This document shows, piece by piece, positions 4,987-37,299 of a DNA stretch of 64,000 bases (position 1 is the stretch's first letter; every line of letters starts with the position of its first letter). Origin of the DNA: Gallionella sp. (GTDB taxonomy: Bacteria > Pseudomonadota > Gammaproteobacteria > Burkholderiales > Gallionellaceae); NCBI GenBank assembly GCA_028688275.1, contig JAQTYN010000003.1, positions 1,358 to 65,357 on the forward strand, read 5' to 3'. Both the position numbers and the translations under genes were made by a program. Under the pieces are notes generated by a model. The model was not told where the DNA came from and did no database searches. It saw nothing but the letters and a program-made list of their open reading frames with translations.

Positions 4987-5088
4987 CTCCCCTCGCCCAC
5001 TTGTGGGAGAGGGGCTGGGGGAGAGGGAATGCACCCGAAAATCAAAACGCCCCTCTCCCTAACCCTCTCCCGCAAGCGTGAGAGGGAA
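4987..5088. repeat. CCCTCTCCC/GGGAGAGGG palindromic repeat, copy A
   Basis: Two nested hairpins, closely similar to 29376-29473. Confidence 0.85.
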
Positions 5089-29375: not shown

Positions 29376-29473
29376 CTCCCCTCGCCCACGAGTGGGAAAG
29401 GGGGGAGAGGGAAAAATTCAGTCAATCAAGCGACTTCCCTCTCCCTAGCCCTCTCCCGCAGGCGGCGAGGGAA
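29376..29473. repeat. CCCTCTCCC/GGGAGAGGG palindromic repeat, copy B
   Basis: Closely similar to 4987-5088. Confidence 0.85.
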
Positions 29474-31540: not shown

Positions 31541-32160
31541 TTGGAAATAACGAGCGTTGAACGCGTACCTTGCTTTTGTAGGAGTTGACGAGCCTTGTCA
31601 GCTTGCTCACGATCCGTAAACGGCCCTACATGGATGCGCGTTTTGTTGTTAGATTTTTCAATGGTGACATTCAGGTTATTTTGCTTTAACTTTTCCGCCA
31701 CTTGCGCTGCTTTTGCAGGATTGCTGTAGTTCCCGACATGGAGCAGATAACGTTTATTATCCGTGCGCTCGGTTCGGCTCCTCACGGGGGGAATCACCAT
31801 GACGGGGTGAGTTGACTCCGCGTTCGTGCTTGAAAGTTTGTTTTTGGCTGGCGCAGTGTCATTGCGACGGGGAGCGACTGGGGTGTCGCCCGCATTGCTA
31901 TCTATAATGGCAGGCGATGTGGCTGGTGTTTCTGGTGTAGGTGCAATTGTTTCAGCGGATGGCGTGGGTGATGTAAATTCGCTGATTTTCTCAGGCGAAG
32001 GGATATCCAGACTGATATTAGTCCCAGCTTGTTTGGGTTCGTTATCCAAAAACATGGGCAATGCCACGACGATGAATAACGTCAGCGCGCCCGCACCCAA
32101 TAAACGATGACGGGTTTTGCGCTTCAGAGCTTGTTCATCAACGCTAAGTTCTTTGGTCAT
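31537..32160 (-). CDS. dedD: SPOR-domain cell division protein
   Basis: RHRLLGA..L...ALPMFLD N-terminus, C-terminal SPOR (RIHVGPF), position between folC and cvpA. Confidence 0.88.
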   Translation of the reverse strand: MTKELSVDEQALKRKTRHRLLGAGALTLFIVVALPMFLDNEPKQAGTNISLDIPSPEKISEFTSPTPSAETIAPTPETPATSPAIIDSNAGDTPVAPRRNDTAPAKNKLSSTNAESTHPVMVIPPVRSRTERTDNKRYLLHVGNYSNPAKAAQVAEKLKQNNLNVTIEKSNNKTRIHVGPFTDREQADKARQLLQKQGTRSTLVISK

Positions 32161-32206
32161 GATTGACTGTTATTCCTGAAAAATTCTGACAGCTACGTTC
32201 AATTTA

Positions 32207-32346
32207 AGCTGTTAGTCGTTAGTTTTTAGTTGATAGTTTAAGTCGGTTGGGATGTGAAATCACAGCATCCCCATATTTTTTGCTATATATTTAAATAGAT
32301 ACGCTCATGTTTTTACTCTCCCAACTAAAAGCTAACGACTAGCGAC
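32207..32346. repeat. Inverted heptamer-repeat element (TTAGTCG/CTAACGA family)
   Basis: Left arm AGCTGTTAGTCGTTAGTTTTTAGTTG is complementary to right arm CAACTAAAAGCTAACGACTAGC, with a spacer of about 90 nt. Confidence 0.75.
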
Positions 32347-32388
32347 AAGTGACTAATATCAAAATATACGTTGATTTGTGTGCACACC

Positions 32389-33795
32389 TTATCTATGCAA
32401 ACGGTGTGCTTGCAGCACCTCCGCCACGGTGTAGAACGAGCCAAAGGCGGTGATTCTATCATTTTCGCCCGCGACATTACAGGCATGAACGAAAGCAGCC
32501 GTCGGATCGTCAAATTTTTGAATGTCGCCGTGCACGTGGCAAGCCTGTAGGGCGGAACTGACTTCATCAGCGGTTGCGCCGCGCGGGGCGTGTATGCTGG
32601 CGACTAACCACACATCCACTTGGTCTTGCAGCGCGGTAATCACGCCCGCCATATCTTTGTCTTTCAGCATGGCAAATACGGCGTATCGGCGGGGAACAGG
32701 CGGTAAGCTCGTCCAGTTTTGCGCCAAACTGCGAGCCGCATGGGGATTATGGGCAACATCTAAAATGACAGTGGGCTTGCCTGGCAAAGTTTGAAAACGC
32801 CCTGTGAGCGAAACTTCTACCAAGCCACACCGCACGGCTGCCATATTGACGGGCAATTTTTCTTTCAGTACGTCCAACGCTGCCAGCACGGCACTGGCAT
32901 TACCCAGTTGGAATGCACCGCGTAAAGCAGGGTAGGGCAGTGACGCACGCGCCCCGATTGGACTGTAAAAATCCCATTGTTGCGGTGATGCAGCGGGGGT
33001 TGCAATAGATAACGGGTCATGGGCGCGCGCCGTGAGGGATACTTCATTAAAACCAAAGTCCGTGCCAATTTGCCACAAAGTCGCGCCGATGTCCTGTGCG
33101 TGCTTCACTAAAGTATCAGGCACATTGGGTTCCGCGCAAATCGCCACCTTACCGCTGCGGAAAATGCCTGCTTTTTCAAAGCCGATCAATTCCCGCGTGT
33201 CGCCTAAATAGTCGATGTGGTCTATGTCGATGCTGGTGACGATGGCGCAATCGCTATCAAACACATTCACGGCATCCAACCTACCACCTAGCCCCACTTC
33301 CAAAATTGCCACATCGACTTGTTGTTCGATAAACAACTGCATTGCCGCCAAAGTGCCGAACTCAAAATAGGTCAACGCGATGTCGGTGTTGCGTAGGTCG
33401 GGATTCATCCCGACATCTCTCTCATTTTTCTCCCTCTGGGAGAGGGCTGGGGTGAGGGCAACTCCTTGACGTGCCAGCTCAATCGCCGTAAAGGACGCGC
33501 ATAAATCCGCATCACTCACGGGTTGTTTGTCGATGCGCACCCGTTCGTTGTACTCCAGCAAATGCGGCGAGGTATAGCAACCGACGCGGTACCCCGCCGC
33601 AAACAAAATGCTTTCCAGCATGGCACAAACTGACCCTTTACCATTCGTCCCGCCCACCACAATCACAGGAAAATCAGGCGACAAATTCATGCGCTGCTTC
33701 ACTTCCGTCACACGTGATAAACCTAGGGAAATGGTTTTAGGGTTTAAAGATTCAAGATGGGTGAGCCAAGCGGGGAGATTTTTATGTACGTTCAT
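32389..33795 (-). CDS. folC: Bifunctional folylpolyglutamate synthase/dihydrofolate synthase, with two in-frame insertions
   Basis: VGGTNGKGS, YTSPHL, TYFEFGTLA, EVGLGGRLDAVN and DVAHNPHAA. Confidence 0.97.
   Translation of the reverse strand: MNVHKNLPAWLTHLESLNPKTISLGLSRVTEVKQRMNLSPDFPVIVVGGTNGKGSVCAMLESILFAAGYRVGCYTSPHLLEYNERVRIDKQPVSDADLCASFTAIELARQGVALTPALSQREKNERDVGMNPDLRNTDIALTYFEFGTLAAMQLFIEQQVDVAILEVGLGGRLDAVNVFDSDCAIVTSIDIDHIDYLGDTRELIGFEKAGIFRSGKVAICAEPNVPDTLVKHAQDIGATLWQIGTDFGFNEVSLTARAHDPLSIATPAASPQQWDFYSPIGARASLPYPALRGAFQLGNASAVLAALDVLKEKLPVNMAAVRCGLVEVSLTGRFQTLPGKPTVILDVAHNPHAARSLAQNWTSLPPVPRRYAVFAMLKDKDMAGVITALQDQVDVWLVASIHAPRGATADEVSSALQACHVHGDIQKFDDPTAAFVHACNVAGENDRITAFGSFYTVAEVLQAHRLHR
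33379..33459. repeat. GTAG-REP plus CCCTCTCCC-family repeat inserted in frame within folC
   Basis: GTAGGTCGGGATTCATCCCGAC (33393-33414) abuts TCTCCCTCTGGGAGAGGGCTGGGGTGAGGG (33429-33458). Confidence 0.85.
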
Positions 33796-33800
33796 TATGG

Positions 33801-34550
33801 TTAGTAATCGCTGAAAGCGGTGAGGCAATGTTGCCAAGCGTCGGGTTGCTGTGATTTTAGTGCCGAAAAGGGAGCCTCATTTTGTCCCGTGCCTTTAAAG
33901 CACCAGCCTAATAAACCGTGGTCGTCGGCTTCTAACAAATGGTCAACCAAGTCGTCCTGTGTTGCGGAGGGAGTTTCCAAGTAGTTGCTAATACATTGCT
34001 TGAGACGTTTATAGGTTCTCTTATAACTTTCGGCCAATCCTTCACGGCGATCTAGTTGCAGTATTTCAACGGTTTTTAATCCCTTGTTTGAATAATCATT
34101 GAGTTGCAAAATATATCGAGCAGACATTCTGCCCGTTTCAATTTCAAAATCCAGATAATCCCAAGGATCTTCTACGCAAGGATCAATTAGCAAGGGCTGT
34201 TGGTCATCGTGCAGTGGAAACTTACTACCTTTAAGGCGACCGCATTCTGTGCAACACAATAGTAAGTTTTGCCACTGAAACATCCATTCAGGAAAGGGCG
34301 ATTTAGGGCGGAAGTGTTCAATATCGCAACCATGAGAATCCACGCAATACATACAGCGTCCGCGCTTGCCCATCATGGATTGCAAGGCATTCAGCACGCT
34401 GGTCATCGATTGGGTTTGACGTGCGGATTTCCACTTGCTGGTTATATCAGGGTTTTCTCCCCGCGCCCGTGCGGTGTCGATTTCCTGTTGTTTATCATTC
34501 AGATAAGTGTGCAGGTCAGGGGCAAGGGCTGCTCGCCGAACGCGTTGCAT
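33801..34550 (-). CDS. HNH endonuclease, PtuB/TIGR02646-like
   Basis: RCMYC..DIEHFRPKS..WQNLLLCCTECGRLKG..PLLIDP. Confidence 0.88.
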   Translation of the reverse strand: MQRVRRAALAPDLHTYLNDKQQEIDTARARGENPDITSKWKSARQTQSMTSVLNALQSMMGKRGRCMYCVDSHGCDIEHFRPKSPFPEWMFQWQNLLLCCTECGRLKGSKFPLHDDQQPLLIDPCVEDPWDYLDFEIETGRMSARYILQLNDYSNKGLKTVEILQLDRREGLAESYKRTYKRLKQCISNYLETPSATQDDLVDHLLEADDHGLLGWCFKGTGQNEAPFSALKSQQPDAWQHCLTAFSDY

Positions 34551-34553
34551 GGT

Positions 34554-36191
34554 TTACAGTTCTTTATCCGCGTGGATAAAGTTGTCCAATTCAGCCAAAC
34601 GTGTTGATTCGGCTGCTGTCAGTGTCGCCCCTGCACGTTGTTTGCTACGAAGTTTGGTAAATTCGGCTAAATTTTCAACCGCCAATTCGGAGCGCGTATT
34701 TTGCAAACCAAACGCAGGCGAACGCAGTACGGCATCACTTTTGGAGGCGCGGACTTCTTGTAGTTGCGCATCGGATAATGCATAAGGTAATTCATCGCTA
34801 CCAGGTTCAGGCAATACAAAAATTTTATCCGCCGCTTGGCAAATCAACGGGCTATGCGTCGTCACCAAAAATTGAATATGCGGGAAATGGCGTTTTAACC
34901 AGCCGCTGATTTCACGTTGCCATTCGGGATGCAAATGCGCATCGACTTCATCAATCAACACCACGCCGCTGCGGGTAATGTACAAGCGACCTTCGGCATT
35001 GCGCGCTGCCAACCCTTCCACGCCAAATTTGCGAATCAATTGACGCAAAATATCCGATAACAACGCCAATGCAGCGCGATAGCCATCGCTCATATCGCGC
35101 CAAGCCAGTCGCAAACCATTGCGATCTTCTAGCCACAAACCATCTGAATTGACATCTTTTAGCGTGATTTGATTCGGCATAAACTCATCACGCAACAATT
35201 CCAACACGATTTCTAACTGTGCTTTTGCTGATTCGTTGCCTTCTAGGGTTTTATACTTTAGGTCACGCAACCAACGATCTGCTTCGTAAAGCGAGGCAGC
35301 TTCTTGAAACAAGGTGGCAAAACGCTCTACCACTTCACCCGTCATCAGTTGCGTCGCTTCTTGGGATGCGCCGAATACTCGACGGAAAGGGCCGTAACCG
35401 CAGGAGAACCAACCTTGAGAATTTTCTGACAAAAGACCATCACCTGCCATCATCGCGCTCAACATCGTAGAGATTAGCATTCGTCCCTCTAAGCTGCTTT
35501 GTATCAGCGTGGCAAATTCCTCTTCTAGAGCATTTCGTTCCGTTTCAGATAACTTGGCAATGTTCTCTTTTACTTGATTAAGCGTAGCTTTTAGTTCATG
35601 AAATTCAATCTCAACATCGTCAAAATTAGCAACCATTGATTTGGCTCGCAAGTATGAGCGGCTCTTTTCGTAAAAAGTCGTGACATCTATTGATGTCCAA
35701 TCTGGAATTGTCAATGCTTGAAGCAGATAAACCCCAAAATTCTTAGCAAAATTTTCTAAGGAGCTATTATCTTTTTTGTCTAGAGAATCCACGATGGCAT
35801 CCATAGATTCGGTTGCAGAGTTGCTAAGGCTAACATCTCGCACAGGAAGAAAATAATCCATAACTGGCGCAACTTCTTGCGGATATTCTTTATTTTGCTC
35901 AAAGAAATCGTCTTCAAGATTGCGCACAAAAGAAAGCGAAGCGTGAGCCTCTTTTTCACCATGACGAACCCATGCGTCAATCTTGGGTTCGAGTGTTAAG
36001 GCATATTGTCCTCTCACCAACCCCGCCGCAATAGCCTTTAACAGTGTGCTTTTCCCCGCGCCATTACCCCCCGTAAAAACAATCCACCCTGCGTACTTGG
36101 CTTGCCCATGCTCATCCACTCCGTGCGCAAGGTCAAAATCCAGCTCTTTGAATCCACGAATGTTTTTCAGTTTAATACGGCTGATGTGCAT
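34554..36191 (-). CDS. ABC/SMC-type ATPase, PtuA-like (AAA_21)
   Basis: LKNIRGF, Walker A GGNGAGKS, signature MSDGY, Walker B VLIDEVDAHLHP and H-loop TTHSP. Confidence 0.9.
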   Translation of the reverse strand: MHISRIKLKNIRGFKELDFDLAHGVDEHGQAKYAGWIVFTGGNGAGKSTLLKAIAAGLVRGQYALTLEPKIDAWVRHGEKEAHASLSFVRNLEDDFFEQNKEYPQEVAPVMDYFLPVRDVSLSNSATESMDAIVDSLDKKDNSSLENFAKNFGVYLLQALTIPDWTSIDVTTFYEKSRSYLRAKSMVANFDDVEIEFHELKATLNQVKENIAKLSETERNALEEEFATLIQSSLEGRMLISTMLSAMMAGDGLLSENSQGWFSCGYGPFRRVFGASQEATQLMTGEVVERFATLFQEAASLYEADRWLRDLKYKTLEGNESAKAQLEIVLELLRDEFMPNQITLKDVNSDGLWLEDRNGLRLAWRDMSDGYRAALALLSDILRQLIRKFGVEGLAARNAEGRLYITRSGVVLIDEVDAHLHPEWQREISGWLKRHFPHIQFLVTTHSPLICQAADKIFVLPEPGSDELPYALSDAQLQEVRASKSDAVLRSPAFGLQNTRSELAVENLAEFTKLRSKQRAGATLTAAESTRLAELDNFIHADKEL

Positions 36192-37094: not shown

Positions 37095-37124
37095 GGTGAA
37101 CTCCTTGTATTTTCTGGGAAACTA

Positions 37125-37153
37125 GGTGGATGCACTGCGGTTATCCACCCTAC
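37125..37153 (-). repeat. GTAG-type REP (GTAGGGTGGAT..ATCCACC)
   Basis: Reverse complement GTAGGGTGGATAACCGCAGTGCATCCACC matches 48417-48445. Confidence 0.8.
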
Positions 37154-37177: not shown

Positions 37178-37299
37178 TTCCCTCCCCCTAGCAGGGGGAG
37201 GGGTAGGGTGGGGGTTGGAATCGTCGCACGGATGGAAACTTTCAACCCCCATCCCAAAACCCCCTCGCTTCGCTCTCCCCCTCTGCTAGGGGGAAGGAG
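37178..37299. repeat. CCCTCCCCC/GGGGGAGGG palindromic repeat, copy C
   Basis: Nested hairpins, similar to 50488-50589. Confidence 0.8.

Follow-up and report, generated by a model that had tools for sequence, protein, structure and literature searches.

How did a block of repetitive DNA come to lie in frame inside folC, and does it do anything for the protein that now contains it? The host is an iron-oxidising Gallionella, and FolC is an essential folate enzyme. The locus was studied within a stretch of 64,000 nucleotides (the window), which belongs to a draft genome of 3.16 Mb in 112 contigs (99.99% complete). The gene, which encodes the bifunctional dihydrofolate/folylpolyglutamate synthase, occupies positions 32389..33795 on the minus strand and was assigned using the list of open reading frames, Pfam, and NCBIfam. 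Its start is likely the ATG at 33795, which gives a protein of 468 residues; the open frame continues to a TTG at 33837 (482 residues), and the alignments of homologues begin at residues 13–21 of this longer frame. Mur_ligase_M and Mur_ligase_C are the Pfam domains detected. The protein scored 317.5 bits against TIGR01499 (cut-off 162.65) and 419.7 bits against the NCBIfam equivalog NF008101 (cut-off 360), the latter match being divided into two stretches that split at the insert. The P-loop (GxxGKGS) is present as GGTNGKGS at residues 62–69, LTYFEF is intact at residues 155–160, and EVGLGGRLDA is invariant in an alignment of 34 sequences. A preliminary description of this DNA had stated that the frame and the catalytic motifs were kept, and these data, including the passing of the FolC equivalog cut-off, agree with it. 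The genome contains no second folC. That the gene is essential and single-copy would explain why the insert has stayed in frame.

The boundaries of the insert were taken from DNA and protein alignments with uninserted alleles. In the DNA alignment with the closest of these (P0007), 84 nt at 33385..33468 (minus strand) stand in place of one Gly codon, for a net gain of 27 residues or 81 nt, and the junctions fall between the Arg codon and G-E-I-P. The encoded residues, Q124–T151 (QGVALTPALSQREKNERDVGMNPDLRNT), are placed between ..IELAR and DIALTYFEF. The 81-nt segment originally delineated, 33379–33459, does encode the peptide ALTPALSQREKNERDVGMNPDLRNTDI exactly (minus strand, residues 127–153 of the 482-residue frame), and the net gain of 81 nt still holds, but the edges of that segment must be shifted to those given here.

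Each half of the insert is, at the DNA level, a copy of a dispersed repeat, which supports the earlier proposal that repeats have become protein sequence. The first is a perfect GTAG-tagged REP unit (family A), GTAGGTCGGGATTCATCCCGAC, located at 33393..33414 on the plus strand, i.e. antisense to folC, and read in the protein as VGMNPDL(R). It comprises the GTAG tag and a palindromic stem-loop (GTAG-GTCGGG-ATTCAT-CCCGAC), in keeping with the definition of such REPs (GTAG at one end of a palindrome of 20–40 nt), and forms a 7-bp stem in the mRNA fold; shuffled sequences gave an expectation of 0 chance matches, and the perfect GTAG-REP reported inside folC is genuine. The second is a unit of family B (the CCCTCTCCC/GGGAGAGGG family, of the BoxC/triplex-motif type) at 33425..33459 on the plus strand, read as (A)LTPALSQRE. 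In order, it features a decayed arm (TTTTTCTCCC), the loop TCT, GGGAGAGGG, CT, the third block GGGGTGAGGG, and a C. The arrangement TCTCCC(TCT)GGGAGAGGG(CT)GGGGTGAGGG at 33429–33458 is that of a triplex motif, with a pyrimidine arm that is partly decayed here and intact in relatives. The 3' arm has gone from GGGAGAGGG to GGGAGAAAA; the B units in folC of relatives retain an intact 9-bp stem, CCCTCTCCC-NNN-GGGAGAGGG (also given as CCCTCTCCC-NGG-GGGAGAGGG). The B hairpin of the window insert has begun to decay. This portion had been called a half copy of the second family; the membership was correct, but the unit is complete (C-rich tail plus hairpin) with one decayed arm.

The loop was modeled using AlphaFold2, a check that had been proposed at the outset. 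With the 34-sequence alignment (mean pLDDT of 79), residues 130–150 had pLDDT values of <50 and no secondary structure, forming a disordered coil between helices 109–123 and 157–171. The insert is probably translated as a disordered 27-residue surface loop. It ends only 4 residues upstream of the conserved LTYFEF strand, and an effect on catalysis is therefore possible.

Both families are dispersed in the genome. A second exact copy of the family A 22-mer is found elsewhere in the 3.16 Mb, and there are 9 copies within 2 mismatches and 14 within 4; inverted doublets (REPINs) occur on contigs C27, C60, and C75. Two Y1_Tnp (RAYT) genes, on C14 and C19, are flanked by other GTAG-REP families (GTAGGAGCGCAATTC.. 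and GTAGGTGCGATTAGCG..). No RAYT flanked by family A was found in this draft genome, which may conceal another copy. For family B, the unit of which is a hairpin plus a G-rich third block, GGGAGAGGG was encountered 8 times in the window (0.12 expected), and hairpins of the form CCCTCTCCC-loop-GGGAGAGGG numbered 176 genome-wide, compared to 0 in a shuffle. Full-length palindromic elements are located between genes at 4987..5085 (hairpin and G tail, centre, C tail and hairpin) and at 29376..29470, and a motif search of the window placed the CCCTCCCCC subfamily at 37178 and 50488; all four locations previously listed for the second family hold copies of it. As judged from its sequence, family B matches the published architecture of the BoxC/PIT/G/C-rich intrastrand triplex motif. 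That motif is defined by three consecutive homopurine/homopyrimidine blocks (6–15 nt) separated by 1–6-nt loops, with C-G-G triads possible (PMC4666352). When extragenic copies were translated in six frames, family B was weakly enriched in stop-free frames (3.82 vs. 3.39 open frames), and the same test gave no enrichment for families A and C. With an enrichment that is weak or absent, no claim is made that the repeats are pre-adapted to coding.

Alignment with FolC orthologues confirmed the 27-residue gap that had been predicted. In a phmmer search of the PDB, the matches to FolC of E. coli (1W78) and Yersinia (3N2A) were split at query residues ~125–151, and most FolC matches in a six-frame search of 40 relatives were split at the insert site. 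Neither of the two structures has the insert, nor do 25 of the 29 aligned relatives, which read ..IExAR-G-D/E-x-x-LTYFEF. The compound architecture of the window allele (a B unit, then a reversed A unit) is shared by P0002/P0003, whose FolC is 82–84% identical to that of the window in protein and 81.8% in nucleotide sequence, and by P0004/P0005 (75% and 74.1%, respectively), all from independent assemblies. P0001 (88%) and P0006 have a B unit alone at the site. P0007/P0008 have no insert, though they fall within the same clade as the window allele. The recurrence of the same compound insert in independent assemblies argues against misassembly and for age; the insert is old and real, and has been in frame throughout.

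The explanation that we favor, with a probability of about 0.85, is that the FolC insert is a translated, tolerated, and functionless loop made of selfish hairpin repeats. A BoxC/triplex-type unit and an unrelated GTAG-REP unit would have landed, or been assembled by replacement, in loop codons of folC, the landing place being the loop between the helix ..IExAR and the strand LTYFEF. The enzyme would tolerate the disordered 27-residue surface loop. Across the Gallionellaceae, the site would have been hit, overwritten, trimmed, or exchanged many times, in the manner of an intragenic mosaic REP cluster (BIME). Insertions, replacements, and deletions among structured repeats would arise in large numbers and pass the filter only at the two permissive loops of the enzyme, and recombination would then spread the resulting folC alleles.

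The recurrence of insertion at this site is evident at several depths of sampling. In the set of species representatives, four congeners have different inserts at the same folC codon: G022 has a decayed REPIN, G001 a REPIN doublet, G014 only a B unit, and G006/L004 a single REP whose 22-mer is that of the window in the opposite orientation. Among the 120 best homologues plus the window protein, inserts of at least 8 extra residues were present at the site in 92 of 121, with lengths of 11–59 residues. All of the approximately 90 inserted homologues were stop-free and in frame, as drawn from a database of predicted proteins that would not show frame-broken alleles. Their contents include REPIN doublets (VGRDSSR..VGMNPDLQ), B units in two arrangements or orientations (LTPALSQGERE / IPTPTLPLKGR / LPPPCRGRAGEGVE..HPHPNLPPARGKE), a third REP family (LDSRLRGNDG; reverse, VVPAKAGIQ), an 11-residue type, and others. 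At least four repeat families are represented at the site across the Gallionellaceae. A match that bridges the site in a single alignment was taken to mean that an insert is held there; by this measure, 38 of the 115 Gallionellaceae species representatives with a FolC match have one, in at least 10 of 18 genera.

Insert type was mapped onto a 120-taxon tree from which the insert had been masked, with classes assigned by peptide regular expressions. The 64 changes required (minimum 10; shuffled mean 77) over-count independent events, since B1 and B2, though scored as separate classes, represent two subfamilies read in a single frame. Presence or absence required 19 changes, and the starred branches alone required at least 7–13 per class. 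Of four alleles with 86–94% DNA identity outside the site, one has no insert, one has a perfect 52-nt REPIN, and two have a B doublet, arranged tails-out in one and tails-in in the other. Identical 29-residue inserts were also found on different FolC backbones, which suggests that allele exchange by recombination contributes to the pattern; the tree test cannot separate this from re-insertion. The 121 proteins have two insertion sites only. The second lies after reference residue 221, and the inserts there are also B-type. In the window protein, the second variable loop comprises residues 265–282 (EVSLTARAHDPLSIATPA; 32992..33045, minus strand), where other Gallionellaceae have family B repeats; at least 8 extra residues are present in 41 of the 121 homologues (e.g. 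LPSPAGGRGAGGEG), and the AlphaFold2 pLDDT is <50 for residues 270–284.

FolC is not the only protein of this genome that contains such repeats. Hairpins of families A, B, or C were sought in frames free of stop codons for at least 60 codons to either side; 41 such frames resulted, 28 of which were confirmed by Pfam as real proteins (29 with FolC); candidates c0, c14, c18, c24, c28, c39, and c21 were left out as probably non-coding or antisense frames. The scan of open frames that the preliminary description had proposed thus places A or B hairpins in frame in at least 29 Pfam-confirmed proteins, and family B units are in frame inside at least 25 proteins of the genome. Proteins of translation and tRNA modification are among them (TilS, MetG at two sites, LeuS, ValS, CysS, GatB, and a radical-SAM enzyme), as are DNA repair and nucleic-acid enzymes (MutL, MutS, RecG, HrpA, an RNB RNase, and a SNF2 helicase). 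The metabolic proteins are Mpl, KdsB, GcvPA, GcvPB, AroA-Cmk, PurL, CobB, an AIR-synthase-like protein, a NifE/N-like protein, and a BioH-like hydrolase; transport, restriction, and other functions are represented by a CusA/AcrB pump, an ABC ATPase, a type III methylase, a TIR protein, and a DUF3683 oxidase. The loop of TilS after GASAMP is a second multi-family hot spot (120 homologues). It contains REPINs, B units, the LDSR.RG.D family, tandem VLSLSKRP units, and others, some of which are shared with FolC alleles.

A possible source of the B units was found in a gene of the DUF559 family. This genome has one DUF559 gene (C107:178-495) and a decayed copy (C112:35042-35152), each located between B units. 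In 25 congeners, B hairpins almost always bracket the gene of a high-scoring DUF559 subfamily at a distance of 20–110 nt, and the bracketing hairpins are exact reverse complements (e.g. CCCTCGCCCGTTTACGGGAGAGGG / CCCTCTCCCGTAAACGGGCGAGGG in L065); a lower-scoring subfamily in the same congeners is not bracketed by them. At five loci in relatives, the whole B-DUF559-B unit is in one open frame with a host protein. Two of the five are MetG (tRNA-synt_1g - DUF559 - tRNA_bind; L083, a closed genome, and L074), and three are MmeI-family enzymes. In MetG of the present genome, a solo B unit stands at precisely the position that the right end of the element takes in relatives. With respect to the criteria for MITEs, the full B elements are palindromic, the DUF559 genes have B units as exact inverted ends, and no target-site duplication was seen at folC. 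Full B elements look like deletion derivatives of the DUF559 element, and solo units such as that in folC look like its remnants; we infer that the DUF559 nuclease may mobilize B units. A tentative extension, to which we would not give even odds, treats the disordered loops (FolC after ..IExAR, TilS after GASAMP, and the MetG linker) as docking sites for a guild of hairpin elements. The BoxC/triplex-type unit would be the terminal repeat of a DUF559 (Vsr-like) element that lives, and is perhaps expressed, in frame in host proteins, like an intein without splicing; the B unit of folC would be its solo end, and the nuclease would be the long-sought mobility enzyme of BoxC-type repeats. Nothing relevant was found in a literature search that combined DUF559 with mobile elements and repeats.

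These data bear on what makes the folC site a hot spot. In our estimation, it mainly reflects a high supply of insertions filtered by the tolerance of the protein. A model of purely random hits plus a filter requires high insertion rates. It is conceivable, if rather doubtful, that targeting is responsible instead: units would be directed to the loop by an enzyme (a RAYT in the case of GTAG-REPs, the DUF559 nuclease in that of B units) or by the non-B DNA structure that a resident repeat adopts, and the loop would act as a docking site for cassette exchange. Such a mechanism would explain why insertion recurs, and what the insert is does not depend on it. It would account for the fixed left boundary, which lies directly after the Arg codon (..GCGCGC) in all 12 sequenced alleles, and for the composition of the window insert, which looks like a fusion of two halves, the left one from a B doublet and the right one from a REPIN. 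The recurrence of the same families in TilS is in keeping with it, as are the exact inverted B ends of the DUF559 elements and the solo B unit of MetG at the place of the whole element in relatives. Loci with triplex motifs have been reported to be locally unstable (PMC4666352), and REPs have been reported to attract insertions (PMC3733652). However, neither a target-site duplication nor a common target motif was found at the folC junctions of these 12 alleles, which were inspected by eye, and neither RAYT of the genome is flanked by family A. Only two FolC loops were ever hit, both modeled as disordered. Further, in Mpl, a Mur-ligase paralogue of FolC, a B insert stands just before FFVIEADEYD, the counterpart of LTYFEF; the equivalence of this position to that in FolC points to structural tolerance.

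Less probable still is that the insert is useful to its host, either because its mRNA hairpin adjusts the expression or stability of folC or because diversifying selection acts on it as a variable surface loop (e.g. one that evades a FolC-binding phage or toxin protein). The mRNA of the insert does fold into two hairpins (-32.4 kcal/mol, z = -2.85), and close relatives differ extremely in what the loop contains. Alleles with an overall divergence of 18% retain the REP stem intact, and the identity within the insert is close to the gene average (80.8 vs. 81.8% and 72.4 vs. 74.1%), in a sample of only ~75 nt. Strictly neutral DNA is expected to decay faster than the gene average; divergence no faster than that average means that some constraint, or gene conversion from other copies, may act. 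Nevertheless, about one-fourth of the best homologues, two-thirds of the species representatives, and all distant orthologues have no insert, and its content, length, and orientation are unconstrained. The same repeats occur between genes and in 28 or more unrelated proteins, decay of the B hairpin is under way in the window, and a scan of positions 32000–35000 against Rfam at E<=1 matched no family. The insert is probably near-neutral, consistent with a tolerated loop of selfish repeats.

An artefact of assembly (a misjoin induced by repeats in a 112-contig draft) or a dead folC (a pseudogene) is very improbable. Repeats are a classic cause of misjoins, and the genome is a draft, but the insert is flanked on both sides by colinear, in-frame folC sequence, four independent assemblies share the compound insert, other inserts occupy the same site in complete single-contig genomes (G120, G124, and G135), and the 99.99% complete genome has no other folC. 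For an ancestral origin of the segment in FolC, followed by loss from other lineages, its presence in several lineages and nothing more can be cited; this reading is refuted by the identity or near-identity of its DNA to dispersed repeats, by the short R-G-D-I-x loop common to outgroup families, E. coli, and Yersinia, and by the mutual non-homology of the inserts at the site.

If the FolC insert is a tolerated loop of selfish repeats, "extragenic" repeats, the BoxC/triplex motif included, are routinely translated in essential enzymes of a free-living bacterium, and protein loops, besides intergenic spacers, can be arenas of repeat turnover. The inserts mark naturally permissive insertion sites in FolC, TilS, and MetG, provide strain-level markers for Gallionella populations, and account for low-complexity peptides ('PSPLPQAGEG / VGLKPDL') and odd variation in length among annotations. 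With the link to DUF559, experiments can address a 30-year-old question, that of how BoxC-type repeats move.

Literature searches on palindromic repeats in Gallionella yielded nothing relevant, and searches for the exact motifs and peptides matched only Holder et al. 2015 (PMC4666352), for GGGAGAGGG. In-frame palindromic repeats as such are established, both as the RPEs of Rickettsia and as GTAG/CGTC REPs. The latter have been described in frame in genes of several species, with intragenic copies in tRNA synthetases and repair proteins and doublets that encode 20–30 residues (Di Nocera, De Gregorio & Rocco 2013, PMC3733652). The preliminary description had stressed that different families were involved and that the insert was compound; this stands, and its overall novelty is tempered by that publication. 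The family A unit resembles the published repeats in being a GTAG-tagged 22-nt palindromic unit that is multi-copy and often arranged in inverted doublets. In contrast to them, the folC REP adjoins a unit from a family that is unrelated and untagged, one codon position bears many inserts throughout the Gallionellaceae, and a cognate RAYT flanked by this REP was not found in the genome.

RPEs (Ogata et al. 2000, as cited in PMC3733652) are selfish palindromes that lie in frame in essential genes of Rickettsia, in tolerated surface loops. The likeness extends to in-frame selfish palindromic repeats in essential genes and to the many genes affected per genome, and the units differ in size (~22–35 nt in Gallionella vs. 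~100–150 nt for RPE-1). Unlike Rickettsia, the Gallionella host is a free-living, non-reduced betaproteobacterium, and several families co-occur in it with rapid turnover at one site. The analogy to RPEs that was drawn initially is apt for how the repeats work, and the resemblance is one of function only.

Holder et al. 2015 (PMC4666352) reported that the G/C-rich triplex motif of E. coli (TMECO) is always intergenic, has no associated mobility gene, and is tied to local instability; in vitro, they saw the triplex form with single-stranded DNA only. Family B shares with the BoxC/PIT/triplex motif its three consecutive blocks (CCCTCTCCC - GGGAGAGGG - GGGGTGAGGG), short loops, frequent palindromic pairs, and motif-bearing loci that differ between close strains. 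Unlike the E. coli motif, it is in frame inside at least 25 proteins in Gallionella and forms the inverted ends of a DUF559 gene. The latter recalls inteins and in-frame homing endonucleases, because the DUF559 gene of relatives, with its B ends, is in frame in MetG and in MmeI-like enzymes. However, the DUF559 element has no splicing domain, so the nuclease would stay part of the host protein, and the comparison concerns the relatives and the origin of the B units, not the folC insert.

In E. coli, BIMEs are mosaic clusters of different REP types at one intergenic site. The FolC site is like them in that one place gathers different REP types, the number and orientation of which vary between strains. 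It is unlike them in that the cluster is inside a coding loop, and each variant must therefore remain in frame and stop-free. What is new compared to all of these systems is the compound A+B insert, the translated BoxC/triplex-type unit, and the family-wide turnover of several repeat families at one codon, with its link to DUF559.

A second variable loop of FolC, residues 265-282 (window 32992-33045, minus strand), has pLDDT values below 50 in the AlphaFold2 model. B-type repeats (BoxC/triplex-motif-type hairpin units) occupied this loop in 41 of the 121 homologues, comprising the 120 best and the window protein; in the latter, the loop is an 18-residue segment lacking a recognisable repeat. 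Across 120 TilS homologues, the loop following GASAMP was a second multi-family hot spot, and its contents included tandem VLSLSKRP units. In the Gallionella genome under study (G000; contigs are denoted C), an inverted REP doublet (REPIN), VGRVSTRQNHHEDVGLKPDLR, lies in frame in the PP-loop domain of TilS, after GASAMP (tilS, G000:C60:4987-5043, outside the window). The modules MEPLAIRLSCQETP and ITSDLPACGLSRMAS were common to the TilS loop of these homologues and to some FolC alleles. Elsewhere in G000, three repeat types form a mosaic in a single loop of RecG (G000:C110:55978; ..RPELVEGQ..NVGLKPDLR..STGPGRTE..), and B-type inserts occur at three or more separate places in HrpA (G000:C73:1064-4918).

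In relatives, two metG loci, L083 (G008:C1:1213317-1213634) and L074 (G019:C6:105520-105837), each contain an entire DUF559 nuclease gene whose inverted ends are B units (B-DUF559-B). The element shares a single open frame with its host and separates the anticodon-binding region from the C-terminal tRNA_bind domain; at this site, G000 MetG has a solo B unit (G000:C6:57912). MmeI-family restriction-modification enzymes at L081, L070 and L072 (genomes G013, G008 and G022) harbor B-DUF559-B in frame within the methyltransferase domain, and these enzymes contain several additional solo B units.

Between accD and folC lies a Septu defence pair (window 33801-36191, minus strand), identified with PADLOC as a 249-aa PtuB-like HNH protein (PtuB, 1.8e-38) and a 545-aa PtuA-like ATPase (PtuA, 3.1e-136). 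In close relatives, different small cargo occupies this gap (BV97_02767 and PIN7 proteins, a 98-aa ORF or an EamA gene); the junction itself is therefore an accessory slot with variable content.

Different repeat families also cluster intergenically: a GTAG-type REP, ..GGTGGATGCACTGCGGTTATCCACCCTAC (window 37120-37150), adjoins a CCCTCCCCC-subfamily element at 37178, an arrangement that parallels the folC loop. The REPs flanking the two RAYT (Y1_Tnp) genes of G000 (G000:C14:53270-53940 and G000:C19:45190-45890) constitute two further GTAG-REP families, GTAGGAGCGCAATTCATTGCGC and GTAGGTGCGATTAGCGCAGCGTAATCGCA, and the genome thus contains at least five hairpin repeat families. Both RAYT loci are classic REPtrons.
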